Positions 31,355 through 63,875 of a stretch of 64,000 nucleotides of DNA are shown in pieces. The translations under genes were made by a program, and so were the position numbers. Each line of letters begins with the position of its first letter. Within the stretch, counting starts at the first letter, position 1. This stretch comes from Marsupella aquatica (Eukaryota > Plantae > Marchantiophyta). The notes under the pieces were generated by a model, which was not told where the DNA came from, made no database searches, and worked only from the letters and a program-made list of their open reading frames with translations. Location: contig OZ316898.1 of NCBI GenBank assembly GCA_973895155.1, forward strand, positions 312,751-376,750, written 5' to 3'.

Positions 31355-31712
31355 TGTGACGCCGCCGGTACGGCGGTTAATGAGTGATTCAGTCTAACTG
31401 CGCTCGGCACGCGCGTTAGGTGGGTCTTAGGCCGCTATTATTAGCATAACGACAGTATTTAGGTAATCATTAGGGGTAGGACATCATTAGGCAATAAGGG
31501 GGACTTCAGGTTCGGGCTGGCGGCGGGTCGCTATTCGCACACCCGGGTTATGAGCATGGAGGGGCCCCTCCCTCGGGTCCGTATAACAAACTTAAGGAAG
31601 CGGCCACTGACGCACGCTGACTCAGACCGGCGGAGTGGCCGGTACACCACAAGCGTGAGCGGTTCAACCTATGGGCGTCGAGGAGACGTCGGGGATCGAC
31701 AAGCCCTCAAAG

Positions 31713-31719
31713 TATAAAA
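31713..31719 (+). promoter_or_regulatory. TATA box of the gypsy LTR (also at 41821 and 51929)
   Basis: TATAAAAGGGG lies 358 bp into the LTR, followed by a CT-rich patch, ~108 nt upstream of the LTR-ORF ATG. Confidence 0.75.
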
Positions 31720-31820
31720 GGGGAGCCAACCCTTTGTAGTGCACCAGTCCATCAGTCCGCGCGCCAACTTCGACCCCAGCTCTCTCGTTCTCTCTAGGTC
31801 GCCACTACTATCTCCTCTGA

Positions 31821-41495: not shown

Positions 41496-44400
41496 TTCAG
41501 TCTAACTGCGCTCGGCACGCGCGTTAGGTGGGTCTTAGGCCGCTATTATTAGCATAACGATAGTATTTAGATAATCATTAGGGGTAGGACATCATTAGGC
41601 AATAAGGGGGACTTCAGGTTCGGGCTGGCGGCGGGTCGCTATTCGCACACCCGGGTTATGAGCATGGAGGGGCCCCTCCCTCGGGTCCGTATAACGAACT
41701 TAAGGAAGCGGCCACTGACGCACGCTGACTCAGACCGGCGGAGTGGCCGGTACACCACAAGCGTGAGCGGTTCAACCTATGGGCGTCGAGGAGACGTCGG
41801 GGATCGACAAGCCCTCAAAGTATAAAAGGGGAGCCAACCCTTTGTAGTGCACCAGTCCATCAGTCCGCGCGCCAGCTTCGACCCCAGCTCTCTCGTTCTC
41901 TCTAGGTCGCCACTACTATCTCCTCTGAATGTCGCACACGATCCTCTCCAGCTCGGCCATTCGATTCTGGACGCAGTTCCTATCTACCGGAAGGCACTTG
42001 GCCGATTCATTGAAACACGCCAACCCGCGCCGATACGAGATCGAATGCGAATACGAGAGAGCCATCCGCCTAGCAGGACGACACCACTACGTCCTTAACT
42101 TTGACTACCCGTCTCAGAGCGAGCTTTACCGACCAGCTGAGGTATCTGGGTACTTCTTTGACAGAGACAAATATATCGGGTTCTGGGAAGCATTGCTTCG
42201 GCTTCCGGACGAGGTCTTCAATATCCCGGGTACAATCGACCTGCAGCGACATCACTTCGACCACATCCCTGCCCAGGTTCGGGCAGTCATTAACGGCGAG
42301 TCCAGTACCAACCGTTCGACAAGGGCGTCCGTACTCGCTTCGGAGAACTTCTACCAGCACTTACAGAGCTTCATGGGAACTCGGCCATCAACCAACATGA
42401 CCAACTCAGCCGGACTCGGACCCGTACCCGTACCCGTACCCGTGCCCATGCAACCTCAGCTTCAGCTTCAGCCTCAGCCGCAGCCTAGCCAAACCCCACC
42501 ACCTATCACCCAGCCAGCACAGGTACGCTCCGTCATCAACGCTGTGGATCTTAGCGATGACGACGAGGCTACCCCACCCTTGACCAGGCGGCCCAGAGGA
42601 ACAAGCGCTCGGGGGGCCGACACTATACCGTCCCCACCCCCTGCTCTGACCCCAGGAGCGGCCCCAGCAGACAACATGGTGACCGTGGCCGCCCCGGGCC
42701 CGTTACCAACCGCAGTGGCACTCCCCAGGCCCGATCGGGAGGATGGGGAAGTATCACCTTCCCCGAGTCAGTCACGGGGAAAGAAGAGAAAGGAATCCGC
42801 CAGTGCATCCGGGTTACCGTTAGCCACGGTAGCTGTAGCCAAGGTAATGATGCATCGCATGGGGGAAAACGTTCACAGCAACATCCTCCATCCCAAGCAT
42901 GCGGTGTACCTGAAGACTCAGGGATTTGAGCACCTCGCCTCTCTCCCCTGGAACACTTGCAGGTACTACGGGGAGGACATGACAGAATTCGTCAAGAATT
43001 ATGACGACGTACGTCAACAGACTCGGCTGCGGGGAAGGAATATGTCCCTCACAGAAGAACGGCTCAAGATGATCTTCGGGTTACCCGAAGGTGACCATCG
43101 AGTCGAATCACGGGCTCCCGGGGGCAAGGGGGCCAAGTACCAATCTTCAAGTTTTCCCTCAGAGGGATCAGTAGACAACGGGTTCGTGATGAGGACCTGC
43201 CTCATGCCCGAGATAGCTGAGCGGCTGGAGTTCCAGAGGTACGCTCTCCACTTGATGGAACCCCGGGGGGAGATCTCCGCCGCCCAGGTCATCCAGGTCG
43301 AGAACTATCGACCTAGGAAGTGGGCGTCGTACTTCGCTAAGAAATTCCATGAAGAGATGGAGCGGCGAAGGAAGACGCTGTACATTGACGGGAAGCCGTA
43401 TTTCGCTAGCCACATCGAAATCATTCTTGAGTGGTATGCCCGGTTTGATCGACGAACCCTTCCCCGCATCAACGTTACAAAGCTGGTCCCAGCTAGGTGG
43501 GTTTTTCCGGCATTGGAGAGACGACCCCAACCCGAGGCCCGAAGTCCAGTGGACACGCCAGCTTCACCCACCCCACCTCCACAAATAGCTGTAATCGTAA
43601 CCGAGGAGGCGTCGGAGGGGTTGGTCGTCGCAACCGTTGATGCGACCCAACTAGCCGGGCTAAGTACAGAAGTTGGTACGGCAGAGGTCTTACCCGAACC
43701 CGGGTCTCCCAAGGACCCGCCGGTGGCAATTCCGGAGAACCGGACATCGCTGCAGGAGGATACTCCGGCCCCTTCCAACGTTATGTCCCCAGGGCTGGAC
43801 GTCACTGCCCCGGCCCCTGCGCGTGTTGATGTCTGCCCGTGCCCAAATCCGGACAGACACAACTTGGACCACCCGGAACTCTTCGTACAGGGTACGTTTC
43901 TGAACGGGCTTCTGGGAGATTTCTCTCATCAAATTGCCCGGGATACCGGGGAGTTCATGGCTCGGAAGGTAGCCTGTTTCTTCAATCAGGAGTTGGTTGC
44001 CGCCGTAAAGGCAGGGCGGGCCCAGTCGGAGGCCCTTCAGAGGATAGAGCGGTACCGGGTGGAGTCCGTGTACCTAAAGAACGAAGTGGCGGCTCAAGAG
44101 GCTGAGCTTATGCAACTACGACCCAAGGTTGCAGCCGCCGATGAGTTGTTAGCAAAGGCATACGCTCTTACCGCCCTAGCTGAATAGGCCAAAGCTGGGA
44201 ACGAGGCCGAGATTACATGACTCCGGAACCAGATTGACAGTTTGAAGAAACAAGCTGTCACCTGGCAGAAAGACCTGGAGGAGGCCGAGGAGCGAGCCCA
44301 GCGGGACGCGACGGAGATAGCCACACTGCAGGCTGAGATGGCGCGGCTCCAAACCGAGGCCGAGAAGCAGGACCAGCTGGCGAGTAAACTGGCGAGCGAC

Positions 44401-45477
44401 GCCCAGCAGCTGGAGGAGGCATGTCAGGAGGCAGTAGAGGAGACGGACGCGGCGAGGCGAGAGAACGAATCTCTGCTGGACCAGGTCCAGCTCCTCAAAG
44501 CGGACAATGACAGGCTTCGAAGGCAGCGGGATGGCCGTTCCCATTCGGGCGGCTCTGGCAAGCGTGCCAGGCATTAGCGGCGGAGTATGAATAGATTAGG
44601 ATTAGAATTGGCTTGGTCAGGCTCTTGGGACAGGCACCTGCCTTAGGTACGGCAGCGCTGCCCTGCTGTCCAGCCTGCGTAGATTAGGATCTTCTAATAA
44701 GACACAGCTGTTTTCCGGCCTGACTGTCAGCTTAGTTAGGACCTTGGTCAGCGAATCTTCGGCGGGAGGACACCCCGTTCCTCGGCTCTTAGTATTTAGT
44801 GCACCCCTCGGTAGAGGCAAGGGGGGTTTTTTAGTTTCAGAGTCGGACATCCGCGGGACATGCGGGGAGTCCCGACCTCTGGGAATGATAGAGTACCAAG
44901 GGGAGGGGGTAGGACTAAGCTTGCCGGGCGAGTGCGGAGCCGGGCTCCGTTGTAGTGTGCACCCTTGGCCTTGAACCTGTGCATTCCAGGGCTGTCGTGT
45001 CAACTAAGTGTACGCATATGTTCCCTTTGTAGTAAAAATCCTTTCCCATCATTTTTCCTTCGTGTAAATCGAGATTGTATGCATGTGTGCGCATATGTGT
45101 GTGGGTTTCTCGTATATGGGTGGCAGCGCCGGGCCGAACGCACTACCCGAGACGTGCACAGGGTGCAGCCTACGGGTAAGTGGTTGCGAGCACGGGTTGA
45201 GGACCTGTATCATCGAATCCGGATCGAAGGCGGACAGCACGAAGGCTTAGAAGCCCTTAAGCCGGGGTCGATCCTGCTATCGACTAAGGTACGTTCCGGC
45301 GGCGGAACACAAACCATACCTAGGAGGTGTCCGTATTTAGCAGTATGCGCACTTAGCGCTAGTTTACGAGAATAAGGTGCATTACGTGCTTCCCTTCCTG
45401 CCCGAACCCTCAGATTTACGAGGGATGTGCCCGTCTAAGCTGAAGTCTGAGTTAAGGCCGAAGCCTACGACGTGACA
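41463..45477 (+). repeat. Gypsy LTR2 (shared middle LTR, chimeric)
   Basis: Preceded by a PPT and followed by a PBS; 4015 bp. Confidence 0.97.
41929..44577 (+). pseudogene. LTR-encoded ORF, copy 2 (752 aa open, then two stops)
   Basis: Stops TAG 44185 and TGA 44218 are shared with copy 1. Confidence 0.9.
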
Positions 45478-45600
45478 TAGCCTTTGTTTTGGCGCTAGAT
45501 GGAGGGGGCACTCTACATATCGTAGAGGGGAGACATGTGCATATTCACCTAGGCAGGATACATCAGGACGTAGTACTAACCATTGCATTTATATGAGTAA

Positions 45601-48600
45601 ATGCCCGTCACTCGTTCTCAAGCAGCTTACTTGAGGAGATTGACCAGCGAACGAGAAAGTGCAACCACAACAAGCTCCGACTCGTCGGGCTCGGAGGACT
45701 CGCAATCGTCCCGACGTATGAACATACCCCCGGGATCTTCGGAGTCCGGTTCGACCGGCCCTGCTGCGGTACCACCACCACCACCACCACCACCACCACC
45801 ACCTATGGCAGCCGCTCCACCGGTGGCCCGCGCTGCTCAGGCACCTCCACAAATATCGCAACGATCGCGATTTCATTATCGACCTTTCAAAGGGCGTCAT
45901 GGGGATGATCCGGATGAATGGTTGGATGAGTTTGAAGCCACTGCTAAAGCTAATGGGGAAGACGTCATTAAGCTAACCGTCCTCCCGGGAGTAATGCGGG
46001 GAGAAGCTCATCCATGGTACAACTCGTTACCACCCGGGACTACCTGGGCACAATTCCAAGCTGCATTGCTGCAGGAGTTTCGTGCCATTGGATCAGAACA
46101 GCGTTCTCTATTAAAGATTGGCCAGCTTCGCATGGGAAAAAAAGAGTCCCTGCGGAAGTTCATTCAGAAGTTTCAGAAACTTGCGGCCAAGATCCGGCCC
46201 AGGCCAGGAGACGCGCTCCAGCTTACATGGTTCCTTCATGGTTTGCCCACGAATATGCAATTCTGGGTACGCCAGAATAATCCAATTTCAATGCAGGCGG
46301 CCATAGCGTGCGCCGAAACTTACCGGGAGTCCACCTATAACTCCCGGCGGAGCCAGCGAGCACGCCGCAGGAAGGGTAAGTACGAAACCTTCAGTGACAG
46401 TGACTCCGAATCGGACGACGAGAGGAAGAAGAAACGGAAGAAGAAGAAGAAACATCATTCGACCTCGTCCAGCTCCGAGACGGAATCCAGTTCGGATTCA
46501 GCTTCAAGCATCGGATCCTCTACCTCCAGTTCATCAGGAAGTGACTTGGAGAGCGAAAGCCGGAGCAAAAAGAAGAAGAGACGAGTGAAGAAGGAGGGGA
46601 AGATTAAACCCCGGGCGCGAAGAACGATACCAGATCCAAAGGCTGCCGAAGCAGACAAGCTGAACAAAATCACGGATCGACTCAAAGCACTGTCAGTACA
46701 TCTTGCGGAGAAGCCGGTGGAGAAGAAGAAGCCATCTGAGATTCGAGCCCATGCGTGGTGTTCAAAGTGCTTCCAATCCGGCCATGTGGTGCAGGAATGC
46801 CCAAGGTGGAAGAACCGAGTTCACCAAGTAGAGCTGGATGATGTTGACAACCCGGGCCCCGAATCGGAGTCCACGGAGTATTTCTTTGAGGACCCTCCTG
46901 ATTCCGTGTACCAGATTTCAACGGTTGGTCCGCGTAATTTAGCGGGTAGAACTGCGTACCCCTACCCAAGTAATGGCCGGAGTTTCCAGGTTATCAGTAA
47001 CCCGAGCATCCCTCCTAAGCCAGGGATTTGGCGGTCCCCGGTTTGTTACAACTGTGAAAAGCCAGGACACTTTGCGAGGGAATGCACCGAACCAAGACGT
47101 CAGGGAGATGGCCGAGGCACCCCACTATGTCAAGTTTGCAAAACGGAGGCTCATTCCACGGCCAACTGTCCGTTGGTAATCGCTGCTCGAACGAGTGCGG
47201 CTAGACCGGCCCAGGCTGGACCAGTCACGAGCGATGCAGTCGTCCAAATGATTGCTGTAGAATGGCAAGATGACAACACCGAGTGGGTGAATCTGGTGGA
47301 CGTGGCGGAACACCCTAATCCATTGGATGAGGCCGAGTGCTACCGAGTGTCGACAAGGGCCGAACGGAAGGAAGAAAAGACGGAGGAGAAACGGAGGAAA
47401 AAGCAAGATACTACTCCAGTGCAGCCAGCGATAAATATACCCCCGGAAAAGGACGATGACTACCGACGGGACGACCCGAAGCTATTTTTCCCCCGCATCG
47501 AAGAATTGGTAAAGAAACAGCTGGAGGCTTACGAAGCTCGGGAATACCAGAAGGCAATCGATAAGGACATCAAAGTAGCCGAGACAGCCCGGCGTCAGGA
47601 GCAAGAAAAGCAAGATAAACAAGAGGAAGCCAAGCAGCAGCCAACGAAAGAAACAAAGGAGGACTATGATATTAAGGAGGACGTGAAGAGTTGCCCGGTT
47701 ACAGCGACGGTGGGGCAACTGCTGCAGAACAACCCACAGTACAGACGACAACTGAGGGAGTTGCTCATGGGTCGCCGAAGGAGAAGACTACCCCGAGTTG
47801 GGAGTGCAGACTGCAACATGATATGCGAGGACCTTGGAGCGCCGGACATCTTGATCGAAATTAATAACTGTACCATCAAGATGGTCCTTGTAGACGGAGG
47901 AGCGGGAGTCAACATCATGACTGAAGAAACGTCAGTCAAGTTAGGATACCTCACGTATCAACCCACGGCCCGAGCTATCAGATTAGCAAACGGGGCAAGG
48001 GTCCTCCCATTAGGCACGCTCACACGAGTGCTCACTCTGGTGGGAGGGGTAGAGTTCTATCTCAACTTCTTAGTCATGAGGCCGGTTCGTCCCTCCTCTT
48101 ATCCGGTTCTTCTGGGCAGGCCGTGGCTGTACGGTGGCCGTGTAGTCACGGATTGGGGAAAGAAGGAGCTACGGTTCGGGGAACCCACCGTACGGGTATC
48201 CTGGGCAATGGACGATTATCAGGGAGAAACCCCACAAGGACCCGAGGAATATGATTCGGAGACCTCGGAGGAAGAGGAACTCAATATGATCGAACTCATC
48301 TCGTCCCTATCCGAGGAAGATGTCTTCGGAGTTGAAGCAACCCGAGAAACACATCTCCTAAATTACCCGAGGGCTGCCATTGAGTCCACCCCAAGTACAT
48401 CTACTGTCGGGGATGAGGAAACGCACGAACAACTCGTCGAGACGGAGGACACGGCTCCAGCCAAGCAGGGAGCCGTGGCTACTCCTTCCATTTCAGAGCC
48501 TTGTAACCATGAACCAGCCCAACAACCGCCTGAGGCCGAAAACTCGAGACCGAGACATAAAAAGCGAGTCTCATGGGATCCGTCCATTCCGCAATTGGAG

Positions 48601-51600
48601 GAAGTAAACCCCATCCCGAGACCAATCCCGGTCCCACCCATGTACGGAGGGGTTCGGTTAGCTGAGCTTGACGCGAGCCTGGACCCGAGTCTGCGAAACC
48701 AGGTTGAAGTCATCAGGAAGGAGCACTACCGGAAGTACACTATTGGGATGGACAAATCTTTTAACCTGGGCCACGCTTTGACGGGGAAGGCTGAAAAAGC
48801 CATCCAAGCTTTGCTCAAGGAATATGAAGATGTGTTTGCATGGAGTCATCATGATTTAACAGGCGTCTCCCCCGAGTTGGGAGAACACACAATCGATCTG
48901 AACCTAGGAGCCCATGCGGTACGACAGCGACAACGTCGCATGAATCCGAGGTACTCCATCTTAGTGAAGGAGGAAATTGATCGTCTCCTCGCCGCCGATA
49001 TCATTTACCCGGTAATGGCCAGCGACTGGGTCTCTCCCATTGTCATTGTACCAAAGAAGGGAGGTACGGATGGAAAACCTAAGATTCGTATCTGTCAGGA
49101 CTACCGTAAGCTCAATGACGCAACCCGAAAAGACCATTACCCATTACCATTCACGGATATGGTTCTAGATATGGTGGCCCGAAATGAAATCTATACATTT
49201 CTTGACGGGTATTCAGGTTATAACCAAATCTGGATTCGTCTCGCGGATCAGCTCAAAACAACGTTCACTACGGAGTGGGGAACGTTCGCATTTCGGAGGA
49301 TGCCTTTTGGTCTGTGTAACGCCCCGGCTATGTTTAAGCGCCTTATGATGAATATCTTCCACGATTTCCTACGGGAATTTTTGGAGATATTTATCGATGA
49401 CTTTGCCATCTTCGGAACCATTGCCATGCACCCCGAACACCTACGACGAACGTTGCAACGATGCCGAGATGTTAACCTCAAACTACATCCCGCCAAATGC
49501 TTCTTCGGGGTAGAGGAGGGGGTGTTACTCGGGCATCGTGTGTCCAAACGGGGCATTGAGGTGGACCAAGAGAAAGTTGCGGCCTGGATGGCGGTGGTGT
49601 TCCCCTTGGATCAAAAAGCAGTACGATCCTTCTTGGGCTGCGTAGGGTATTACCGCCGGTTCATTAAAGACTTTGCTAAAATTGCGTTGCCCTTAACTGA
49701 GATGATGAAGAAGGACGCAGCGGTCGAGGAAACACCCCGGAGACGGATTGCTTTTGAGGAACTCCGTAAACGACTCACCACCGCGCCTATCATGGTCACC
49801 CCAGACTGGAATAAGGAGTTCCACGTGTATGTCGATGTGTCAGGGTTCTGTATCGAATCCGTACTTAGTCAGCTAGATGAGGATGGACGTGATCACCCCA
49901 TCTATTTCGCTAGCCGTCAACTATTTGCAGCCGAAAAGAATTATTCCCCCACTGATCGAGAAGCTTTGGGAATAATCTACTTGTGTAAAAAGTTCCGACA
50001 CTATCTGCTAGGCTACAAGGTCATTTTCCACACAGATCATGATAGCCTGAAGTACATGGTCAACAAAGCGGATGTGACAGGACGGATAGCCCGGTGGGTG
50101 CTACTTCTCCAGGAATTTAATTACAAAGTTTGGGTTCGGCCAGGAAGGGTACACCTCAATGCCGATTTCTTTTCACGACTGGACGGCGTACCAGTCGATC
50201 AGCCAATTGATGATATTTTTCCGGATGAGGAGTTGTTCCACGTAGGGGAAGGGACACCAACGTGGTACGGCTCAATAATCACCTTCCTTTTAACGGGCCG
50301 CATCCCTGACGGCATCAATCAGGAGGCCGCCGCTGTGTTTTTACGGAAAGCCGGGCCTTACGTCATGATACAGGGTCACCTACATAAGGAAGGTATTAAC
50401 GGAAAGTTACGACGCTGCTTAGAGTATAAGGAGACACTTATCGTGATACGGGCCCTGCATGAAGAAGAAGCTGGAGGCCATTTCGCGGCAGTTACGACAG
50501 CCCGAAAGATTCTGGACTCGGGGTATTGGTGGCCTACGTTGCATCGGGATGTACAGCGCTTCATTAAGGGCTGTGACTTGTGTCAACGAGCGGGGGCCCC
50601 GAGGCGGGCTCATCATCACCCGCTCACATCTGTGCTTCCATTGGCACCATTCGAAAAATGGGGGATTGATTATATCGGACCGTTCACTCCCGTTACCCGA
50701 AGGCGAAGGTGCAGATACATCCTATTAGCTATTGATTACTCCACCAAATGGGTCGAAGCGCGGGCTACGGTAAAGGACGACGCCGCAACTAGTGCCAGAT
50801 TCTTATACGAACAGATTTTCACCCGATTCGGACCGCCCTTAGAATTGGTAAGCGACCGTGGAACCCACTTCCTCAATGACACCGTAGCCCAGCTTACGGA
50901 GCGTTACCTAGTCAAGCACCGCAAGACTACCCCATATCATCCTAAAGCCAACGGGATGGCGGAGAGAGCAAATGGTATCATTGGGAAGATCCTCAACAAA
51001 ACTGTAGCTGCGCACAAAACGGATTGGGATGATAAGTTGTACGCGGCGGTGTACTCGTATAATCTAGCTTACAAAACTACTACGAGTCATAGCCCGTACT
51101 TTCTGGTATTCGGCCAACATTTGTTGGTGCCCGTCGAATTTGAAGTGCACACTCCACGGGTCAGCATTCGGGATCGCTTACCTGAATCTGAAAGTCTGTC
51201 AGACCGAGCTTATCAGATTGAAGCCTTGGAAGAAGCACGGCTACTGGCAGCTCGACACACCGTGAAGAAACAGACAACTTCAAAGAAGCAGCATGACAAA
51301 GGACTACGGAGGGTCGACGTCGTGGCAGGCGATCTAGTCCTTCTGTACGATAGTAGGTACATGCAGTTTCCAGGGAAGCTGCATACCCGGTGGTTGGGGC
51401 CCTTCCTTGTCAATCAGATCTACCGAAACGGATCTTTGGAGCTTGCGACGTATGCCGGCGATTTACTCCCCACGCGAATCAGCTACGATCGTGTAAAAAA
51501 GTACCACCATCAAGATGACGACGCCGATAGCGATGTTCGCGAGGACGCTTCACAATTAAGCAGGGAGCTATGTGACGCCGCCGGTACGGCGGTTAATGAG

Positions 51601-51603
51601 TGA
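45601..51603 (+). CDS. Ty3/gypsy Gag-Pol polyprotein, copy 2 (2000 aa)
   Basis: Same domains as copy 1. About ten nucleotide differences read by eye (e.g. G>E, S>P, Q>R, M>T, T>A, A>V, D>G). Confidence 0.97.
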   Translation: MPVTRSQAAYLRRLTSERESATTTSSDSSGSEDSQSSRRMNIPPGSSESGSTGPAAVPPPPPPPPPPPMAAAPPVARAAQAPPQISQRSRFHYRPFKGRHGDDPDEWLDEFEATAKANGEDVIKLTVLPGVMRGEAHPWYNSLPPGTTWAQFQAALLQEFRAIGSEQRSLLKIGQLRMGKKESLRKFIQKFQKLAAKIRPRPGDALQLTWFLHGLPTNMQFWVRQNNPISMQAAIACAETYRESTYNSRRSQRARRRKGKYETFSDSDSESDDERKKKRKKKKKHHSTSSSSETESSSDSASSIGSSTSSSSGSDLESESRSKKKKRRVKKEGKIKPRARRTIPDPKAAEADKLNKITDRLKALSVHLAEKPVEKKKPSEIRAHAWCSKCFQSGHVVQECPRWKNRVHQVELDDVDNPGPESESTEYFFEDPPDSVYQISTVGPRNLAGRTAYPYPSNGRSFQVISNPSIPPKPGIWRSPVCYNCEKPGHFARECTEPRRQGDGRGTPLCQVCKTEAHSTANCPLVIAARTSAARPAQAGPVTSDAVVQMIAVEWQDDNTEWVNLVDVAEHPNPLDEAECYRVSTRAERKEEKTEEKRRKKQDTTPVQPAINIPPEKDDDYRRDDPKLFFPRIEELVKKQLEAYEAREYQKAIDKDIKVAETARRQEQEKQDKQEEAKQQPTKETKEDYDIKEDVKSCPVTATVGQLLQNNPQYRRQLRELLMGRRRRRLPRVGSADCNMICEDLGAPDILIEINNCTIKMVLVDGGAGVNIMTEETSVKLGYLTYQPTARAIRLANGARVLPLGTLTRVLTLVGGVEFYLNFLVMRPVRPSSYPVLLGRPWLYGGRVVTDWGKKELRFGEPTVRVSWAMDDYQGETPQGPEEYDSETSEEEELNMIELISSLSEEDVFGVEATRETHLLNYPRAAIESTPSTSTVGDEETHEQLVETEDTAPAKQGAVATPSISEPCNHEPAQQPPEAENSRPRHKKRVSWDPSIPQLEEVNPIPRPIPVPPMYGGVRLAELDASLDPSLRNQVEVIRKEHYRKYTIGMDKSFNLGHALTGKAEKAIQALLKEYEDVFAWSHHDLTGVSPELGEHTIDLNLGAHAVRQRQRRMNPRYSILVKEEIDRLLAADIIYPVMASDWVSPIVIVPKKGGTDGKPKIRICQDYRKLNDATRKDHYPLPFTDMVLDMVARNEIYTFLDGYSGYNQIWIRLADQLKTTFTTEWGTFAFRRMPFGLCNAPAMFKRLMMNIFHDFLREFLEIFIDDFAIFGTIAMHPEHLRRTLQRCRDVNLKLHPAKCFFGVEEGVLLGHRVSKRGIEVDQEKVAAWMAVVFPLDQKAVRSFLGCVGYYRRFIKDFAKIALPLTEMMKKDAAVEETPRRRIAFEELRKRLTTAPIMVTPDWNKEFHVYVDVSGFCIESVLSQLDEDGRDHPIYFASRQLFAAEKNYSPTDREALGIIYLCKKFRHYLLGYKVIFHTDHDSLKYMVNKADVTGRIARWVLLLQEFNYKVWVRPGRVHLNADFFSRLDGVPVDQPIDDIFPDEELFHVGEGTPTWYGSIITFLLTGRIPDGINQEAAAVFLRKAGPYVMIQGHLHKEGINGKLRRCLEYKETLIVIRALHEEEAGGHFAAVTTARKILDSGYWWPTLHRDVQRFIKGCDLCQRAGAPRRAHHHPLTSVLPLAPFEKWGIDYIGPFTPVTRRRRCRYILLAIDYSTKWVEARATVKDDAATSARFLYEQIFTRFGPPLELVSDRGTHFLNDTVAQLTERYLVKHRKTTPYHPKANGMAERANGIIGKILNKTVAAHKTDWDDKLYAAVYSYNLAYKTTTSHSPYFLVFGQHLLVPVEFEVHTPRVSIRDRLPESESLSDRAYQIEALEEARLLAARHTVKKQTTSKKQHDKGLRRVDVVAGDLVLLYDSRYMQFPGKLHTRWLGPFLVNQIYRNGSLELATYAGDLLPTRISYDRVKKYHHQDDDADSDVREDASQLSRELCDAAGTAVNE

Positions 51604-54600
51604 TTCAGTCTAACTGCGCTCGGCACGCGCGTTAGGTGGGTCTTAGGCCGCTATTATTAGCATAACGATAGTATTTAGATAATCATTAGGGGTAGGACAT
51701 CATTAGGCAATAAGGGGGACTTCAGGTTCGGGCTGGCGGCGGGTCGCTATTCGCACACCCGGGTTATGAGCATGGAGGGGCCCCTCCCTCGGGTCCGTAT
51801 AACGAACTTAAGGAAGCGGCCACTGACGCACGCTGACTCAGACCGGCGGAGTGGCCGGTACACCACAAGCGTGAGCGGTTCAACCTATGGGCGTCGAGGA
51901 GACGTCGGGGATCGACAAGCCCTCAAAGTATAAAAGGGGAGCCAACCCTTTGTAGTGCACCAGTCCATCAGTCCGCGCGCCAGCTTCGACCCCAGCTCTC
52001 TCGTTCTCTCTAGGTCGCCACTACTATCTCCTCTGAATGTCGCACACGATCCTCTCCAGCTCGGCCATTCGATTCTGGACGCAGTTCCTATCTACCGGAA
52101 GGCACTTGGCCGATTCATTGAAACACGCCAACCCGCGCCGATACGAGATCGAATGCGAATACGAGAGAGCCATCCGCCTAGCAGGACGACACCACTACGT
52201 CCTTAACTTTGACTACCCGTCTCAGAGCGAGCTTTACCGACCAGCTGAGGTATCTGGGTACTTCTTTGACGGAGACAAATATATCGGGTTCTGGGAAGCA
52301 TTGCTTCGGCTTCCGGACGAGGTCTTCAATATCCCGGGTACAATCGACCTGCAGCGACATCACTTCGACCACATCCCTGCCCAGGTTCGGGCAGTCATTA
52401 ACGGCGAGTCCAGTACCAACCGTTCGACAAGGGCGTCCGCACTCGCTTCGGAGAACTTCTACCAGCACCTACAGAGCTTCATGGGAACTCGGCCATCAAC
52501 CAACATGACCAACTCAGCCGGACCCGGACCCGTACCCGTACCCGTACCCGTGCCCATGCAACCTCAGCTTCAGCTTCAGCCTCAGCCGCAGCCTAGCCAA
52601 ACCCCACCACCTATCACCCAGCCAGCACAGGTACGCTCCGTCATCAACGCTGTGGATCTTAGCGATGACGACAAGGCTACCCCACCCTTGACCAGGCGGC
52701 CCAGAGGAACAAGCGCTCGGGGGGCCGACACTATACCATCCCCACCCCTTGCTCTGACCCCAGGAGCGGCCCCAGCAGACAACATGGTGACCGTGGCCAC
52801 CCCGGGCCCGTTACCAACCGCAGTGGCACTCCCCAGGCCCGATCGGGAGGATGGGGAAGTATCACCTTCCCCGAGTCAGTCACGGGGAAAGAAGAGAAAG
52901 GAATCCGCCAGTGCATCCGGGTTACCGTTAGCCACGGTAGCCGTAGCCAAGGTAACGATGCATCGCATGGGGGAAAACGTTCACAGCAACATCCTCCATC
53001 CCAAGCATGCGGTGTACCTGAAGACTCAGGGATTTGAGCACCTCGCCTCTCTCCCCTGGAACACTTGCAGGTACTACGGGGAGGACATGACAGAATTCGT
53101 CAAGAATTATGATGACGTACGTCAACAGACTCGGCTGCGGGGAAGGAATATGTCCCTCACAGAAGAACGGCTCAAGATGATCTTCGGGTTACCCGAAGGT
53201 GACCATCGAGTCGAATCACGGGCTCCCGGGGGCAAGGGGGCCAAGTACCAATCTTCAAGTTTTCCCTCAGAGGGATCAGTAGACAACGGGTTCGTGATGA
53301 GGACCTGCCTCATGCCCGAGATAGCTGAGCGGCTGGAGTTCCAGAGGTACGCTCTCCACTTGATGGAACCCCGGGGGGAGATCTCCGCCGCCCAGGTCAT
53401 CCAGGTCGAGAACTATCGACCTAGGAAGTGGGCGTCGTACTTCGCTAAGAAATTCCATGAAGAGATGGAGCGGCGAAGGAAGACGCTGTACATTGGCGGG
53501 AAGCCGTATTTCGCTAGCCACATCGAAATCATTCTTGAGTGGTATGCCCGGTTTGATCGACGAACCCTTCCCCGCATCAACGTTACAAAGCTGGTCCCAG
53601 CTAGGTGGGTTTTTCCGGCATTGGAGAGACGACCCCAACCCGAGGCCCGAAGTCCAGTGGACACGCCAGCTTCACCCACCCCACCTCCACAAATAGCTGT
53701 AATCGTAACCGAGGAGGCGCCGGAGGGGTTGGTCGTCGCAACCGTTGATGCGACCCAACTAGCCGGGCTAAGTACAGAAGTTGGTACGGCAGAGGTCTTA
53801 CCCGAACCCGGGTCTCCCAAGGACCCGCCGGTGGCAATTCCGGAGAACCGGACATCGCTGCAGGAGGATACTCCGGCCCCTTCCAACGTTATGTCCCCAG
53901 GGCTGGACGTCACTGCCCCGGCCCCTGCGCGTGTTGATGTCTGCCCGTGCCCAAATCCGGACAGGCACAACTTGGACCACCCGGAACTCTTCGTACAGGG
54001 TACGTTTCTGAACGGGCTTCTGGGAGATTTCTCTCATCAAATTGCCCGGGATACCGGGGAGTTCATGGCTCGGAAGGTAGCCTGTTTCTTCAATCAGGAG
54101 TTGGTTGCCGCCGTAAAGGCAGGGCGGGCCCAGTCGGAGGCCCTTCAGAGGATAGAGCGGTACCGGGTGGAGTCCGTGTACCTAAAGAACGAAGTGGCGG
54201 CTCAAGAGGCTGAGCTTATGCAACTACGACCCAAGGTTGCAGCCGCCGATGAGTTGTTAGCAAAGGCATACGTTCTTACCGCCCTAGCCGAACAGGCCAA
54301 AGCTGGGAACGAGGCCGAGATTACACGACTCCGGAACCAGATTGACAGTTTGAAGAAACAAGCTGTCACCTGGCAGAAAGACCTGGAGGAGGCCGAGGAG
54401 CGAGCCCAGCGGGACGCGACGGAGATAGCCACACTGCAGGCCGAGATGACGCGGCTCCAAACCGAGGCCGAGAAGCAGGACCAGCTGGCGAGTAAACTGG
54501 CGAGCGACGCCCAGCAGCTGGAGGAGGCATGTCAGGAGGCAGTAGAGGAGACGGACGCGTCGAGGCGAGAGAACGAATCTCTGCTGGACCAGGTCCAGCT

Positions 54601-55585
54601 CCTCAAAGCGGACAATGACAGGCTTCGAAGGCAGCGGGATGGCCGTTCCCATTCGGGCGGCTCTGGCAAGCGTGCCAGGCATTAGCGGCGGAGTATGAAT
54701 AGATTAGGATTAGAATTGGCTTGGTCAGGCTCTTGGGACAGGCACCTGCCTTAGGTACGGCAGCGCTGCCCTGCTGTCCAGCCTGCGTAGATTAGGATCT
54801 TCTAATAAGACACAGCTGTTTTCCGGCCTGACTGTCAGCTTAGTTAGGACCTTGGTCAGCGAATCTTCGGCGGGAGGACACCCCGTTCCTGGGCTCTTAG
54901 TATTTAGTGCACCCCTCGGTAGAGGCAGGGGGGGTTTTTTAGTTTCAGAGTCGGACATCCGCGGGACATGCGGGGAGTCCCGACCTCTGGGAATGACAGA
55001 GTACCAAGGGGAGGGGGTAGGACTAAGCTTGCCGGGCGAGTGCGGAGCCGGGCTCCGTTGTAGTGTGCACCCTTGGCCTTGAACCTGTGCATTCCAGGGC
55101 TGTCGTGTCAACTAAGTGTACGCATATGTTCCCTTTGTAGTAAAAATCCTTTCCCATCATTTTTCCTTCGTGTAAATCGAGATTGTATGCATGTGTGCGC
55201 ATATGTGTGTGGGTTTCTCGTATATGGGTGGCAGCGCCGGGCCGAACGCACTACCCGAGACGTGCACAGGGTGCAGCCTGCGGGTAAGTGGGTGCGAGCA
55301 CGGGTTGAGGACCTGTATCATCGAATCTGGATCGAAGGCGGACAGCACGAAGGCTTAGAAGCCCTTAAGCCGGGGTCGATCCTGCTATCGACTAAGGTAC
55401 GTTCCGGCGGCGGAACACAAACCATACCTAGGAGGTGTCCGTATTTAGCAGTATGCGCACTTAGCGCTAGTTTACGAGAATAAGGTGCATTACGTGCTTC
55501 CCTTCCTGCCCGAACCCTCAGATTTACGAGGGATGTGCCCGTCTAAGCTGAAGTCTGAGTTAAGGCCGAAGCCTACGACGTGACA
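51571..55585 (+). repeat. Gypsy LTR3 (3' LTR, contains the intact ORF)
   Basis: Ends CGTGACA followed by the TSD GCCTT. Confidence 0.97.
52037..54685 (+). CDS. LTR-encoded 882-aa protein of unknown function (N-terminal globular region, P/Q-rich linker, basic NLS-like motif, transposon-accessory-like domain, C-terminal coiled coil)
   Basis: Uninterrupted 2649-nt ORF wholly inside the LTR. Contains RGKKRK and GKRARH basic motifs, TEFVKNY...RLRGRNMSLTEERLKMIFGLP, and a heptad-rich E/Q/A/L C-terminal ~170 aa. Confidence 0.85.
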   Translation: MSHTILSSSAIRFWTQFLSTGRHLADSLKHANPRRYEIECEYERAIRLAGRHHYVLNFDYPSQSELYRPAEVSGYFFDGDKYIGFWEALLRLPDEVFNIPGTIDLQRHHFDHIPAQVRAVINGESSTNRSTRASALASENFYQHLQSFMGTRPSTNMTNSAGPGPVPVPVPVPMQPQLQLQPQPQPSQTPPPITQPAQVRSVINAVDLSDDDKATPPLTRRPRGTSARGADTIPSPPLALTPGAAPADNMVTVATPGPLPTAVALPRPDREDGEVSPSPSQSRGKKRKESASASGLPLATVAVAKVTMHRMGENVHSNILHPKHAVYLKTQGFEHLASLPWNTCRYYGEDMTEFVKNYDDVRQQTRLRGRNMSLTEERLKMIFGLPEGDHRVESRAPGGKGAKYQSSSFPSEGSVDNGFVMRTCLMPEIAERLEFQRYALHLMEPRGEISAAQVIQVENYRPRKWASYFAKKFHEEMERRRKTLYIGGKPYFASHIEIILEWYARFDRRTLPRINVTKLVPARWVFPALERRPQPEARSPVDTPASPTPPPQIAVIVTEEAPEGLVVATVDATQLAGLSTEVGTAEVLPEPGSPKDPPVAIPENRTSLQEDTPAPSNVMSPGLDVTAPAPARVDVCPCPNPDRHNLDHPELFVQGTFLNGLLGDFSHQIARDTGEFMARKVACFFNQELVAAVKAGRAQSEALQRIERYRVESVYLKNEVAAQEAELMQLRPKVAAADELLAKAYVLTALAEQAKAGNEAEITRLRNQIDSLKKQAVTWQKDLEEAEERAQRDATEIATLQAEMTRLQTEAEKQDQLASKLASDAQQLEEACQEAVEETDASRRENESLLDQVQLLKADNDRLRRQRDGRSHSGGSGKRARH

Positions 55586-57936
55586 GCCTTACCAAGATCC
55601 TTCATCCTGAATTCAACACTCAATTTCGCCTTGAGACTGTCAACCTCAGATTGATCTTTAGCCACAATCAGCATGTCATCCACATAGATCACCAGAATGA
55701 TGAAACCAAACACATCATTCTTGACTGATTTTGTATACATACAAGGATCATACACCATCCTTGTAAAACCTTGAGCAAGCATGAAATCATCAAACCGCTT
55801 GTTCCATTGTCTGGGAGACTGCTTCAATCCATACAAGGACTTGAGCAATCTGCAAACTAAGTTCTCTTGGCCCTTCTTCATAAAGCCTAGTGGTTGTCTC
55901 ATGAAGATCAACTCTTCCAAATTGCCATAGAGAAAAGCAGTAACAACATCCATCTGATCCATCACCAGACCAAAAAACACAACAAGCTGACACAAGATCC
56001 GAATTGTGGAATACTTAGCCACCGGTGAAAAGACCTCATTGTAGTCCACTCCTTTCTCCTGAGTGAACCCCTTGGCAACAAGCCTTGCCTTGTAGATCTT
56101 ATCTCCACCCTCTGAAGGACTGTCCTTCAACTTGTAAATCCACTTACTGTCCACCACTTGCTGACCTCTTGGAAGCTCCACCAGCTCCCATGTCTTGTTG
56201 TCACTCAAAGATTGCAACTCCCTTTGCATTGCTGCATTCCACTCATGCTTCTGCTTTGAAGCACAAGCCTCACTGTACGAAGAAGGCTCTCCTTCTTCCA
56301 AGATCAAAGCCATGTCATCATCATCAGGTGCAATGTCAATATCATCTAGCTTAGATGAGTCTGCCCATTGATCATACCTGGTAGGAGCTCTAGTAGAACG
56401 ACTGGAAGTTCTTCTAGTAGATGACTCAGGCTGATCTGCTGCTGCTGCTGGTTGAATTTGAGGTACCCCAGCAACAATCTGCTCCTCTTGTTCCATCACA
56501 GGAACCAGCTCCAAGCCCGGAGCTTCTCCATCTCTCCTATCATGAACTGCATCATGACTAATCTCCCCCTCAACCCGGTCCGGGATGGGAGATTTCCCCT
56601 TGTCAGTCTGGGAGTCCTGAGAACTCTCCCCCTCCTTTGATGATCTGGACTCATTAAAGGACACATCTCTACTGACAATTAACTTACAGGTTACTGGATC
56701 CCATAACCTATAACCCTCCACACCTTTCTGATAGCCAAGGAAAATGCACTTCTTCGACTTGGACTCCAGCTTGGATCGAAGCTGAGAAGGTGTAAGCACA
56801 TAAGCATCACATCCAAAAATCCTCAGATGTGAGTAATCTGCTGGACGCCCGTACCTCATTTCAAATGGCGTCTTGAATCCAATAGAACTGGATGGAGAAA
56901 AATTTACCAAATAAGCTACAGTGTTGACAGCTTCAGCCCAAAACTCATGTGGTAAGCATGATTGACTCAACATACTCCTCGAGCGGTCCAATAGTGTTTG
57001 GTTGAGTCTCTCAAAAACACCATTCTGCTGAGGAGTATAATTTGTTGTGAGATGGTGGGTTATCCCCTGCTCCTTACAATACGTTCCAAATTCCCTGGAA
57101 CTGTATTCACCGCCATTATCCGATCGTAGATATCTCACCTTATTACCAGTCTGATTCTCAACTTGGGCTTTCCACTCCTTAAAAGTGGCAAAAACATTAG
57201 ACTTACTGTGTAGAAAATATATCCACACATACCTTGAGTAATCGTCTATGAACGTGACATAGTATAATCGTCCAGAATGTGAGAGAGTAGGGGCTGGACC
57301 CCACACATCACTATGTACATATTCAAGTACCTCCTTGCTGGTGTGAGTTCCAACTCCGAAGGGTTTCCTGTGCTGCTTCCCTAGCACATAGTGCTCACAA
57401 AATTCCAACTTACAAGATTGCAAATTAGAAAGTAATCCTTTCTTCTGAAGAATAACCAAACCTTTTTCACTCATGTGACCCAAACGGAAGTGCCACAGCC
57501 GGGCCGTCTCCTCATGAGATAAGGTTATATTGGCTTCATCACAAACTACACAGCCCTCCAAAACGTATAGATTGCTATGTCTCTTTCCCTTCAATACAAC
57601 TTTAGTATCAGTTGAAACCTGAAGGACACCATTAGCAGAACTCCACTGATGGCCATTTGCTTCTAAAACTCCAAGTGAAATGAGATTTTTCATCATGGTG
57701 GGAATGTGTCTCACATTCCTCAACGTTCTTACAGCACCATCAAACATCTGAAATCTTACAGATCCAAGTCCAACAACTTGACATGGGATTCCATTTCCCA
57801 TCAACACTGACCCATTGGAAACCGTGTAAGAACTGAAAAAATCTCTCCTAGAGCAAATGTGAAAAGTACATGCACTATCTAGAATCCAGTCATCACTCCC
57901 TGGATTTGACACTACGTTGAGAACATAACCTTGACA
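55586..57936 (-). pseudogene. Copia A pol, N-terminal part (protease, GAG-pre-integrase, integrase, RT), interrupted by the gypsy
   Basis: WILDSAC, LWHFRLGHMS, VHSDVWGP, LRSDNGGEY, PQQNG, YKARLVAKG, QMDVVTAFL, SLYGLKQ and IYVDDML. Confidence 0.95.
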
Positions 57937-59336: not shown

Positions 59337-59579
59337 CATACCTAACCTAGACGTAAGAGTAAATACCCAACAATCTTCCCCTTGACTCTGGTCTAGGGGA
59401 GAGTAATACTGCCAATGTATATGATCCCTCAGCGGGAAGTTCTGGACAAAAACCAAACCGGTTTCCCTCTCTAACTAGAGCAAACCAGAACTAAGCCGTA
59501 GCCTAATACATAGGAATGAGGAAGAGCATATATCAATAATTACAATGAATGTTAAGAAAACTCTACTTGTGATGCAATT

Positions 59580-62500
59580 GCAAAACTTGCAATACGTCAC
59601 GGTGTCTAGAGAAACTCTCCAAAGGAATCACTTTGGTAAATGCGTCAGCCGGGTTGAGTTTACCATCAATCTTGACTAGCTCAACAAATTATCAGACACA
59701 GCCTGCCTGATAAAATGGTACCTGACGTCAATGTGCTTCACTCTGCTGTCCATCACCTGGTTCACAGCAAGGTGGAGCGCACTTTGACTATCACAATGGA
59801 GCTTCACATTCCCCTGTGGCAATCCCATTTCAGTGATAAGTCTATCCAACCAAATCGCTTCCTTTGTTGCTTCCGCAGCTGCAACATACTCCGCTTCTGT
59901 AGTAGACTGAGCAATACACTTCTGCAAAGTAGACCTCCAACTTATGCATCCACCGCCAAGTGTGAACACGTATCCTGTTGTTGATCTCCTTCGGTCCAAA
60001 TCTTGTCCATACTCAGAATCAACATAGTCAATCATTGATTTAGCATTCTTTGCATTCGCATCAAATAAAAGACCATGATCCATGGTACCCTTCAAGTACC
60101 TGATAATCCACTTCACTGCTTCCTAGTGTACCTTCCCTGGATTCGATATGTACCTGCTCACCTTGCCCATAGCCATGGCAAGATCAGGTCTAGTGCAAGT
60201 CATCAAATACATGAGACTCCCCACTGCCTTATCATACGGAACCTTTGACATCAACCCCTTCTCTGTGTCATCCGTAGGACAGAACGCTGATGATAACTTG
60301 AAGTGTGGAGCCAACGGGGTACTTACTGGCTTGCTATTTCCCATGTTGAACCTTGCAATTACCTTCCTCGCATAACTGCTCTGCGTCAACCATAGCTTGC
60401 CAGCCTCCAAGTCCCTAGTGATCTCCATACCCAAAATCCTCTTAGTTGGCCCTAAGTCCTTCATCTTAAACTCTGCACTAAGCAGTGCCTTGAGCTTAAC
60501 AATCTCAGACCTATCCTTGGTTGCAATTAGCATATCATCCACATAAAGTACTAAAACAATGAACCCAAAGACAACATTTTTTACCGGTTTCAAATACACA
60601 CAAGGGTCAAATACACTTCTGTGAAAACCTTGTGACCGAATCCAATCGTCAAACCGCTTGTTCCACTGTCTTGGTGACTGCTTCAACCCATACAAGGATT
60701 TCAACAATCTACAAACCAATTCCTCCTGTCCTCTCTTCACAAAACCTAGCGGTTGTCTCATGAAGATCACCTATTCCAATGTGCCATAGAGGAAAGCTGT
60801 GACAACATCCATCTGATCTAGCAGCAGACCAAACATTACAACAAGTACACACAATAGTCGTATTGTAGAGTACTTAACAACTGGTGAGAAGACCTCATTG
60901 TAATCCACACCTTTCTCTTGTGTGAATCCCTTTGCTACCAACCTAGCCTTGTAGACCTTTGATCCACCTCCTATGGAATTATCCTTTAGCTTGTAAATCC
61001 ACTTGCTGTCCACCACTTGCTGACCCTTAGGCAGCTTAACAAGCTCCCAAGTTTTGTTGTCCTTTAGTGACTGTATCTCCGTTTGCATTGCTGCAGTCCA
61101 CTTCTGCTTCTCCTTTGAAGCACTTGCCTCATGAAATGAAGAAGGTTCCCCTTCTTCCAAAATTAACGCATCACCCTCATCATCAGCTGCAAAATCATCC
61201 TCTTGCAGTTGAGATGAATCAACCCATTGTCCATACCTTGGTGGAGCGCGTACAGTGCGACCAGATGTTCTTCTAGCCGATGACTCCGATTGATCTGCGT
61301 GTGCTGGTACAATTTGAAGCTCAACAGCATCCACTTGCTGCTCACCAGCATCAACAAACTCCTCTGGTTCCTCTAGCACAGGAACCAGCTCCATAATTGG
61401 AGCAACTCCTTCTCTCCGATCATGCACCTCATAACCAATCTCCCCCTCAACAAGATCCGGGATAGGAGATTTTCATTTGTCAGTACGGGAGACCTGAGTA
61501 TTCTCCGCCTTCTTCAATAATCTGGATTCATTGAAGAAAACATCCCTACTGACAACGAGCTTACAGGCAATAGGATCCCATAGCCTATAGGCTTTCACAC
61601 CACTCTGGTACCCAAGAAAAACACATTTCTTGGAGGTAGGATCCAACTTGGTCCTATTTTGCTTCGGTGTGAGAGCATATGCATCACTTCCAAAAACTAC
61701 CAAGCCATGATAGTCTGCTTGCCGCTTATAGCGCATCTCAAACGGCGTTTTGAAATTGATAGCACTAGAAGGAGAAAGATTTACCAAATAAGCTGCGGTA
61801 TTGACAGCTTCTGCCCAAAATTCTTGTGGTAAACCTGATTGGCTCAACATACTCCGTGACCGCTCCAACAGTGTCCGATTGAGCCTCTCAGCGACACCAT
61901 TCTGCTACGGAGTATAAACTGTGGTGAGATGATGAGTTATCCCCTGTTCTGAACAGTACTCTTCAAATTCCATTGAAGTGTACTCCCCGCCGTTGTCTGA
62001 CCTCAGACTCTTCACCCTTGTATCCAAATACTTGATCGTGTTTCCAATCTGATTCTCCACCTGGGCCTTCCACTTCTTAAAAATGGACAAGATATCAGAC
62101 TTATGCGTCATGAAATAAATCCACACAAATCTTGAGTAATCATCAATAAATGATACATAGTACAACTTTCCAGAGTGTGAGGGAGTCGGGGATGGACCCC
62201 ACACGTCACTATGTATGTACTCAAGAACCGCTTTGGAACGATGAGTTCTAACACCAAAAGCACGACGATGCTACTTTCCAAGAATGCAATGCTCACAAAA
62301 CTCTAATTTACAAGATTGCAAATCAGAAATGAGTCCATTCTTCCGTAAGATAGCCAAACCCTTCTCACTCATGTGGCCTAGCCGTGAATGCCACAGTTGA
62401 GTCATCTCCTCGTGAGATTTGGTTACATTGGCCTCTCCACATACAGTATTGCCCTGTAACACATACAAATTCTTTTGTCTACTCCCCTTCAAAATCACCG

Positions 62501-63875
62501 TCTCTCCCGACCTGACTTGAAGTTCACCATCAATAACGCTCCATTGATGACCATTTGAATCCAACACACCGAGTGAAATCAGATTCTTACGCATGCCAGG
62601 TACATACCTGACTCCGGACACTGTGCGCACAGCGCCATCAAACATTTGAATCTTCACAGACCCAATTCCCTCAATTTGACAGGAGTGATCATTTCCCATC
62701 AGAATTGAACCGTTTGAAACAGAGTAAGAACTGAAAAACTCACGAATGTAACAAATATGAAAAGAGCAAGCACAATCAAGAATCCACACATCATCTGCTC
62801 TCCTAGATAACGTGCACAGGGCATACCTCCGGCTTCATAAAACATACTCATCATTGAGTAAATCAGTTTCTCCATCAGCCCTAGCCACATTTGCCGATGA
62901 AGTTTCCGCTGCCTTTCCCTTACAGTCTCGTTTGAAGTGTCCAACTTGGTTGCACTTCCAACATGTCACCTGCCTCCTCTGAGGGGATTTACCCTTGGAC
63001 TTAGATCTGGATTTAGATCTAAACTGGGTTCTACGGTCCCTAGTTGGTCGCTGCATACTCCTCCCACGGTTAACATTGAGGGCAGCACCAGATGATGAAG
63101 GCTGTGACGTGATGTGCATCTTCTGCTGAAGATCATCACTAAGCAGAGAACTTACCACGTCATTGTATGAAATGGTATCCCTATCACGATGCAACAACAC
63201 TCGTGATAGGGACTGGTAAGATGGAGGCAATGAACTAAGAAGCTGCAGAGCCTTTGTCTCATCATTCAAAGTCTCCCCAAGGTTTTCCAAGTCAACGACC
63301 ATGTCATTGAAAGCATCCACATGGTCTTGCAACTTCGTACCGGATTCCTTCATCCTGAAACTCATCAGTTTGTAGGAAGTGTAGAGCCGGTTCGACAACT
63401 CCTTGCGGTGATACTTGCTCTGCAATTCCGCAAACAAGGACATGCAATCCTTATGTGCACCCAACTGCTTGATGATGGGAGGCATGAGATAGAGTGTAAC
63501 ACCACACACTCCCTGCTCCTGCATGCGGTCCCATTGTTTCTCATCAATATCGTCTTCACGAGGGCTCAGCAGTTGGCCCATCCCTGACGCATAGAGCACT
63601 CCCTTCACCTACTTCTCCCATAGCAAGTAGTCAGAGCGCCCATTATACTTTGTCACTTCATACTTGGGTCCCCCAAGCTTGAAAGTCCTTATCTTCTTCT
63701 TTGGCACTACCGTGAGCTCCGGTAGTAGTACTGCTTCCTCCACCACACGCCGCACCGGTGATGGTATCGGTGTCACGTGCTCTTCCTCCTGCTCCTCTCT
63801 CTGCCCCTGAAACCTCCGCGGTGATCCTCGTGCTTCAAGTTCCACGTCTTTGAAAAACTCCTCCGAATCACTCAT
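59580..63875 (-). pseudogene. Copia B gag and pol
   Basis: gag MSDSEE...LSNRLY...CWKCNQVGHFKRDC; pol WILDCAC, LRSDNGGEY, YKARLVAKG, LYVDDML, TTEAEY. Premature TAG codons at CAG and TGG positions. Confidence 0.93.

Follow-up and report, generated by a model that had tools for sequence, protein, structure and literature searches.

The 64,000-nucleotide stretch of the liverwort Marsupella aquatica analysed here (contig OZ316898.1, positions 312,751 to 376,750; hereafter the window) contains a Ty3/gypsy retrotransposon whose long terminal repeat (LTR) carries, entirely between its own ends, an open reading frame (ORF) of 882 codons. The encoded product is interpreted as an accessory protein of the PMD/VANC-like kind (PMD, plant mobile domain) with two unusual features, its bryophyte host and its location inside the LTR. 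At the level of sequence the central globular domain of this protein is unlike any known family and fits no existing Pfam family, and its affiliation comes from predicted structure, in which the closest match is VANC21 (PDB 9LNJ/9LNK), the anti-silencing protein of the Mutator-like element (MULE) VANDAL21 (Hiun) of Arabidopsis. On this structural prediction, the domain is best placed in the PMD/VANC-like structural superfamily, from whose other members it has diverged strongly.

Protein family and predicted fold

When 1.84 billion representative proteins were searched exhaustively with HMMER, 39 relatives of the 882-residue protein reached E≤0.001; 18 of them stood at E≤1e-10 and 2 at E≤1e-30. 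One relative, P0040, is a full-length homologue of 906 residues that is collinear with residues 13-881 (30% identity, E 2e-96). Because of these relatives, the frame is judged on sequence grounds to be a real, selected protein, more than a chance frame. Its folded modules also have a coding-type base composition, with a GC content of 0.64-0.68 at third codon positions (GC3) versus 0.38-0.40 at second positions (GC2). The family sharing this architecture spans 17-52% identity, and the relatives for which a species is named (four of the ten clusters looked up, plus P0033) all come from the leafy liverwort Calypogeia fissa, where the entries are titled 'unnamed protein product' and one cluster comprises six members on four contigs, told apart by their lengths. 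P0040 has the same modules: the N-terminal domain, the central domain with a basic patch preceding it, the coiled coil, and a tail that reads GKRAR. Conservation in this comparison is highest in the central domain (97 of 206 residues identical), with the linkers and coiled coil at about one quarter identity (33 of 139 residues for linker 2). Several more distant relatives combine the N-terminal with the central domain, or the central domain with the coiled coil. A word-indexed protein search with residues 300-882 gave zero matches, and with the family alignment it gave two members of the family only.

A full-length AlphaFold2 model resolves the protein into three folded modules with disordered linkers between them, in agreement with the modular build and second proline-rich linker proposed in a first-pass annotation of the sequence. 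The layout is as follows, with model confidence given as the predicted local distance difference test score (pLDDT):

52052-52402, plus strand: N-terminal helical domain, residues 6-122, pLDDT about 90 (AlphaFold2)
52409-52945, plus strand: linker 1, disordered, Pro/Gln/Ser-rich, residues 125-303, pLDDT about 30
52883-52900, plus strand: basic patch RGKKRK, residues 283-288, within linker 1
52949-53566, plus strand: central globular domain, residues 305-510, predicted VANC21/PMD-like fold
53090-53194, plus strand: core motif TEFVKNY..FGLP, within the central domain
53570-53986, plus strand: linker 2, disordered, Pro-rich, residues 512-650, pLDDT about 30, weak conservation
53942-53968, plus strand: CPCPNPDRH, from residue 636, within linker 2
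53993-54646, plus strand: C-terminal long helices, residues 653-870 (653-673, 675-753 and 759-870), pLDDT 80-94
54665-54682, plus strand: basic tail GKRARH, residues 877-882, at the C-terminus

The N-terminal domain is kept in the relatives P0040, P0044, P0053, P0024, P0025, P0033 and P0004. The basic patch of linker 1 is found at the same place in P0040 and P0005, and the tail has equivalents in P0040 and in P0036 (SKRAK). All the motifs listed in the first-pass annotation (RGKKRK, TEFVKNY, FGLP, CPCPNPDRH and GKRARH) are present and lie where they had been placed, except that RGKKRK begins at 52883, 17 nt before the start of 52900 given there. The segment CPCPNPDRH shows no sign of being a functional motif, since the linker around it is modelled with low confidence and its counterpart in P0040 is only a loose match. 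The motif EF..N..RG..L..FGLP, which had been picked out from this one protein, proves to be the conserved core of a real family: TEFVKNY begins at residue 352 (53090) and FGLP at residue 383 (53183), and the core residues are E353, F354, N357, L374, F383 (31/31) and L385 (29/31). Conservation extends to H324, W341, F409, C424, R432, F435, E458, W465 and H495.

The long heptad coiled coil that had been proposed for the C-terminus holds for its last helix of 112 residues (759-870, positions 54311-54646), in which heptad periodicity has a z of 11.3 and was reached by none of 2000 shuffles. It does not hold for the helix of 79 residues before it (675-753), where periodicity is not above chance (z 0.6) and no single phase is kept. 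The full-length model matches generic long antiparallel coiled coils only, and the earlier label 'SMC-like' is therefore generic and without specific meaning, because the helices match any long antiparallel coiled coil. Coiled-coil Pfam matches at the C-terminus are all sub-threshold, and a two-copy complex prediction for residues 653-875 scored 0.13 against a mark of 0.32, which counts neither for nor against an oligomer. No transmembrane-like segment is found in the protein, the highest Kyte-Doolittle mean over 19 residues being 1.15, as anticipated by the remark in the first-pass annotation that the protein does not resemble env.

Folded alone from 36 sequences with AlphaFold2, the central domain reached a pLDDT of 88.7 (87.3-88.7 over five models) and a predicted template modelling score (pTM) of 0.85. 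Its top match in Foldseek is VANC21 (9lnj_A; E 0.037, probability 0.96, query template modelling score (TMq) 0.49), with the next-best match only at E 2.1. The matched VANC21 domain is one bound to double-stranded DNA, and by predicted fold the central domain falls within the VANC/PMD structural superfamily. The structural check suggested in the first-pass annotation has thus returned both a confident central fold and a clear match to a transposon accessory protein, so that the outcome named there as refuting, neither a match nor a fold, did not arise. The central domain is also basic, with an isoelectric point of 9.4, and is net positive in 16 of the 21 family members with at least 170 residues. 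A Foldseek search against the viral structures of BFVD gave nothing at E≤0.001, with no capsid, nucleoprotein or glycoprotein match.

The protein nevertheless differs from VANC21 in several ways. Identity to the central domain is 10%, with no profile match; VANC21 comes from a dicot DNA transposon, whereas the present protein comes from a bryophyte LTR retrotransposon in which the gene lies within the LTR; and VANC21 has neither the additional N-terminal domain nor the coiled coil of about 200 residues. A 2026 atlas of Arabidopsis transposon proteins describes structural homology between VANC and MAIN, a plant mobile domain protein, and predicts that VANC21 homodimerises via a coiled-coil helix and that the Athila domain likewise self-associates through coiled coils (PMC13547354). 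Through this VANC-MAIN homology the protein is also linked with the host PMD-C proteins MAIN, MAIL1 and MAIL2 of Arabidopsis, although these are host genes that are not transposon-borne, and the link drawn here runs via VANC.

Sequence comparison did not uphold the membership in the Athila ORF-1 or Transposase_32 domains that had been suggested for the protein, and the Pfam search proposed alongside it found no family at cut-off in any part: residues 1-299 gave no family and residues 300-560 a chance-level match only. Transposase_32 (PF20167) gave no match for the whole protein or its central part at E≤10, and none of 36 family members reaches its cut-off of 45 bits, the best score in the family being that of P0022 (13.7 bits, E 0.059). 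The ATHILA ORF-1 family (PF03078) has no match to the protein, nor to the 36 members among the matches listed (25 of 71 families), and PMD (PF10536) and DUF1985 (PF09331) likewise have none to the protein, or to the members among the matches listed. At E≤0.01, 38 of the 39 relatives have no Pfam family, and the remaining one has a sub-threshold DUF. What stands of the Transposase_32 resemblance is its register: residues 4-70 of P0022 align weakly to profile positions 3-58, as expected, and when the trimmed family alignment is compared by hhalign with four PF20167 domains (P0136, P0082, P0135 and P0134), ORF residues 327-385 fall on their EFYAN..VRG..FLG stretch, albeit without significance (E 0.059, probability 0.9%, 56 columns). 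A language-model search of the ESM Atlas with residues 301-515, covering named clusters only, returned as neighbours Transposase_32 (ranks 1-3), ATHILA (0.81-0.82), and DUF1985 and PMD (0.80-0.81), with scores of 0.79-0.83 overall; these are leads only, because all fall under the tool's mark of 0.9. VANC proteins probably carry DUF1985. Searches of PDB sequences with phmmer and with the family profile returned coiled-coil noise only.

The angiosperm gypsy proteins P0082, P0134, P0135 and P0136, which came up in a search with the pol of the element, carry their Transposase_32 domain after the integrase. In P0082 a DUF7310 coiled coil comes next, so that domain and coiled coil stand in the order seen in the LTR protein. 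The coiled coil of the relative P0053 matches DUF7310, the neighbour of Transposase_32 in P0082, below cut-off (E 0.0015, 19.4 bits against 40). PMD, Transposase_28 and Athila ORF-1 domains typify the additional ORFs found in the gypsy elements Ogre, Retand and Athila (PMC6317226). With such extra ORFs (PF10536 in Ogre, PF04195 in Retand, PF03078 and PF20167) the present frame has in common that it is a sense-strand accessory ORF of a gypsy element without chromodomain, that it keeps the EF..N..RG..L..FGL register, and that its globular domain precedes a coiled coil, an arrangement also present in P0082. However, those ORFs are described (same source) as flanking gag-pol on its 5' or 3' side within the internal region, while this one is inside the LTR; Pfam scores here are far under cut-off, and the named relatives are from a liverwort only.

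Position within the long terminal repeat

The accessory frame belongs to a tandem of three LTRs, in the last of which it is intact:

31355-35369: LTR A, 4,015 bp (self-BLAST)
41463-45477: LTR B, 4,015 bp (self-BLAST)
45601-51603, plus strand: gag-pol polyprotein, 2000 aa, whose last 33 nt reach into LTR C
51571-55585, plus strand: LTR C, 4,015 bp, TG..CA ends (TGTGAC to GTGACA)
51929-51936, plus strand: TATA-like box TATAAAAG, 108 bp upstream of the accessory ATG with no ATG between, read from the sequence
52037-54685, plus strand: accessory ORF, 882 aa (standard code), intact in LTR C only

The frame starts at offset 466 of LTR C and ends 900 bp short of the LTR end, so that the earlier claim of a frame wholly within the LTR is borne out by the coordinates. 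An in-frame stop codon directly precedes its ATG. It is an LTR-embedded gene in the sense that the frame lies between the LTR ends and is present in every LTR copy. With this location each element has the gene twice and every solo LTR retains a copy, and the gene may stand directly behind the LTR promoter. Among the matches listed in a literature phrase search for LTR-borne ORFs, none concerned a plant LTR retrotransposon with an ORF within its LTR.

Expression of the accessory ORF would proceed from the putative TATA-like box 108 bp before the ATG. If this box is used, either each LTR would be a self-contained gene, which would require a poly(A) site within the LTR, or the genomic RNA would have the frame as its first cistron. 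The signal AATAAA is absent from both strands of the 24-kb gypsy element (window 29635-60063), against 30 occurrences in the rest of the window, and the poly(A) signal of the element must therefore be a variant one. As a first cistron the frame would be positionally similar to ORF1 of Ogre elements, except that the primer-binding site follows the frame here and precedes it in Ogre. Alternatively, transcription may start downstream of the frame, which would then lie in U3 as a 3' accessory gene now beyond the polypurine tract, as in the 'LTR ORF' of mouse mammary tumour virus (MMTV). This superantigen frame of MMTV also lies within the LTR and is hence doubled at the provirus ends, but the proteins are unrelated and MMTV is an animal retrovirus. 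MMTV is the subject of about half of the matches listed in the phrase search.

The carrier element and its setting

By self-BLAST, the Ty3/gypsy element is arranged as LTR-internal-LTR-internal-LTR over 24.2 kb, with a repeat unit of 10,108 bp and copies that are 99.1-99.6% identical. A single 5-bp target-site duplication, GCCTT, brackets the whole block (31350-31354 and 55586-55590). Both internal parts encode the 2000-aa gag-pol frame, in which a Pfam scan finds Retrotrans_gag, zf-CCHC, protease, RVT_1, RNase H and integrase domains and no chromodomain. A purine-rich tract adjoins the LTR start, and a primer-binding-like site beginning with TGG lies downstream of the LTR end (TGGCGCTAGATGG, 45490-45502); it begins 12 nt past that end, farther than usual, and the window contains no tRNA genes with which it could be compared. 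The pentamer of the target-site duplication is also found just past the LTR (45480-45484), possibly by chance, and gag holds a perfect (ACC)11 microsatellite (45771-45803) coding for eleven consecutive prolines. The block is inserted within a Ty1/copia element on the minus strand (55573-57801 (-), 59676-60083 (-) and 30401-31350), identified by its RVT_2, integrase and gag-pre-integrase domains, and a second copia copy, 74-78% similar, lies at 59483-62793.

The three LTRs differ at 37 sites and by no indels. Transitions account for 34 of these differences, and 25 of the transitions fall at CG (16) or CHG (9), contexts that make up 26% and 22% of the cytosines; this excess points to deamination of methylated cytosine and hence to a gypsy element under cytosine-methylation pressure. 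The insertion is nevertheless young, since the ratio of observed to expected CpG is still 0.89-0.95 in the element, versus 0.54 in window 1-30000. Near the LTR start LTR A differs from B and C, which agree, and in the middle of the LTR A and B agree and differ from C. This mosaic pattern of shared differences suggests recombination or conversion between LTRs.

Read depth in two public runs (30 bins) is about 4.5-fold higher from the LTR border on, and although depth is not copy number, this step fits a very abundant gypsy family with many extra LTRs. A pol relative of the element lies on a 4-kb metagenome contig (L001), where the 2.3 kb upstream of gag contain neither a relative of the LTR protein nor DNA similarity to the window, a negative that is uninformative because an LTR may be absent from that contig altogether. 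Its gag is immediately preceded, in the same orientation, by a short zinc-ribbon-like ORF (1965-2240), whose CxxC..CxxC pattern looks similar to that of the transcription elongation factor Elf1/ELOF1.

Proposed function, alternatives and significance

The VANC21-like fold, the basic central domain, the conserved basic patches flanking it and the long coiled coil together lead us to propose, tentatively, as the most likely function that of an oligomeric, nuclear, DNA-binding factor which acts on its own family, at the level of chromatin or transcription, and protects or activates the copies of the element. In this proposal the central domain would bind DNA, as its predicted fold and basic charge suggest, oligomerisation would run through the C-terminal coiled coil, and nuclear import would use the two conserved basic patches, RGKKRK and GKRARH. 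The action on LTRs of the same family would be anti-silencing or activating by analogy with VANC21 and MAIN/MAIL1, and by the same analogy the accessory protein likely helps the element to escape host silencing. VANC21 binds a 9-base motif arrayed in the non-coding parts of its own family, leading to loss of DNA methylation (PMC5735166, PMC10398659), and MAIL1/MAIN and MAIL2 occupy specific DNA motifs and oppose Polycomb silencing (bioRxiv 10.1101/2024.09.27.615353).

Several results weigh against this proposal. The structural match to VANC21 is moderate (10% identity, root-mean-square deviation 4.3 Å, TMq 0.49), and a fold in common with VANC21 does not demonstrate function; moreover, the accessible literature on VANC does not establish its own biochemical mechanism. 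Sequence methods do not recover the relationship: no Pfam family reaches cut-off in the 882-aa protein or in 36 family members, the family profile finds no VANC among PDB sequences at E≤10, and hhalign against the full-length Transposase_32-bearing proteins P0136 and P0082 found nothing. Unlike VANC targets, the non-coding LTR parts of the element contain no arrays of short motifs. Tandem Repeats Finder reports short coding microsatellites only, and across the 1.5 kb that make up the leader and the non-coding LTR, any given 7- to 10-mer is present at most 3-4 times. The commonest 8-mer is present three times, and chance alone is estimated to yield about four such 8-mers. Finally, the frame carries premature stops in two of the three window copies, namely at codon 538 in LTR A (537 aa, protein 98.2% identical) and at codon 753 in LTR B (752 aa, 98.4% identical), and is intact in LTR C only. 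The 25 inter-copy differences inside the frame fall 11/7/7 on codon positions 1/2/3; this spread indicates neutral drift, with no selection since insertion, as is normal for any integrated copy.

This decay raises the question of whether the gene is a passenger, either a captured host PMD-like gene in the LTR or the relic of an accessory gene with no present role. The premature stops and the lack of codon-position bias would be expected of such a passenger, MULE capture of host PMD genes is documented (PMC5418596), and the pol relative on L001 is without such a gene upstream of gag. However, post-insertion decay is normal for any retrotransposon copy, and L001 may have no LTR. Conservation of all three modules at 30% identity, and in several C. 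fissa paralogues on different contigs, requires long-term purifying selection. The family is also highly abundant, its LTRs being covered about 4.5 times as deeply as the internal part, and we consider a passenger improbable. We give about as little weight to a role in integration targeting, in which the PMD/VANC-like domain would bind a DNA motif or a chromatin partner, steer insertions and replace the chromodomain. The polyprotein lacks a chromodomain, the predicted fold is of a DNA-binding type and the insertion here is within another retrotransposon, but a single insertion is uninformative on target preference, contact with integrase has no support, and the accessible literature on PMD/VANC proteins describes no such role for any of them.

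A particle or RNA-handling factor, that is, a coiled-coil oligomer that coats or chaperones element RNA or scaffolds virus-like particles like LINE-1 ORF1p, seems somewhat less improbable than either of these, though still unlikely. Both a long coiled coil and a basic globular domain are present, LINE-1 ORF1p is described as forming coiled-coil trimers that bind nucleic acid, and if the TATA-like box at 51929 is the promoter, the frame would be the first cistron, like LINE-1 ORF1. Against this, a complete gag, capsid domain and zinc knuckle included, is already encoded by the element, the module order is opposite to that of ORF1p, and the sole clear structural match is a transposon factor bound to double-stranded DNA and not an RNA-recognition-motif (RRM) or capsid fold, and BFVD yields neither a capsid nor a nucleoprotein match. 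The extra 3' ORFs of Athila-type elements have been proposed to encode env-like or movement proteins, and such a role would suit a large extra ORF after pol in a gypsy element with a coiled-coil region. It is extremely improbable, however, as the protein has no segment of transmembrane strength and no viral glycoprotein match.

Among the accessory domains of plant gypsy elements, those of the PMD type are the commonest. They are the source of the host chromatin regulators MAIN and MAIL1, and VANC, derived by capture of a PMD-type domain, is to our knowledge the only well-studied transposon anti-silencing factor. PMD-type domains have been described as angiosperm features and the ancestry of transposon-borne versus host PMDs as "fully open" (PMC5418596). 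The strongest form of the proposal, which we regard as distinctly unlikely, is that every LTR, solo LTRs included, is a self-contained gene for a VANC/PMD-like, sequence-specific factor that keeps the LTR promoters of the family unsilenced. If true, this would be the first anti-silencing gene within a retrotransposon LTR, and PMD-like domains carried by transposons would then date back to the base of land plants. It would also fit the descent of host PMD genes such as MAIN from elements of this kind, with an ancestral job of opposing Polycomb/H3K27me3 (histone H3 lysine 27 trimethylation) silencing of transposons. Bryophyte transposons are reportedly associated with H3K27me3, in preprint work, and a transposon factor akin to Polycomb opponents is for this reason an attractive target in Marchantia-type systems. 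A Pfam-less protein family of liverwort-type retrotransposons with a predicted VANC21-like core would extend the superfamily to early land plants, and this extension would make the question of PMD ancestry testable.

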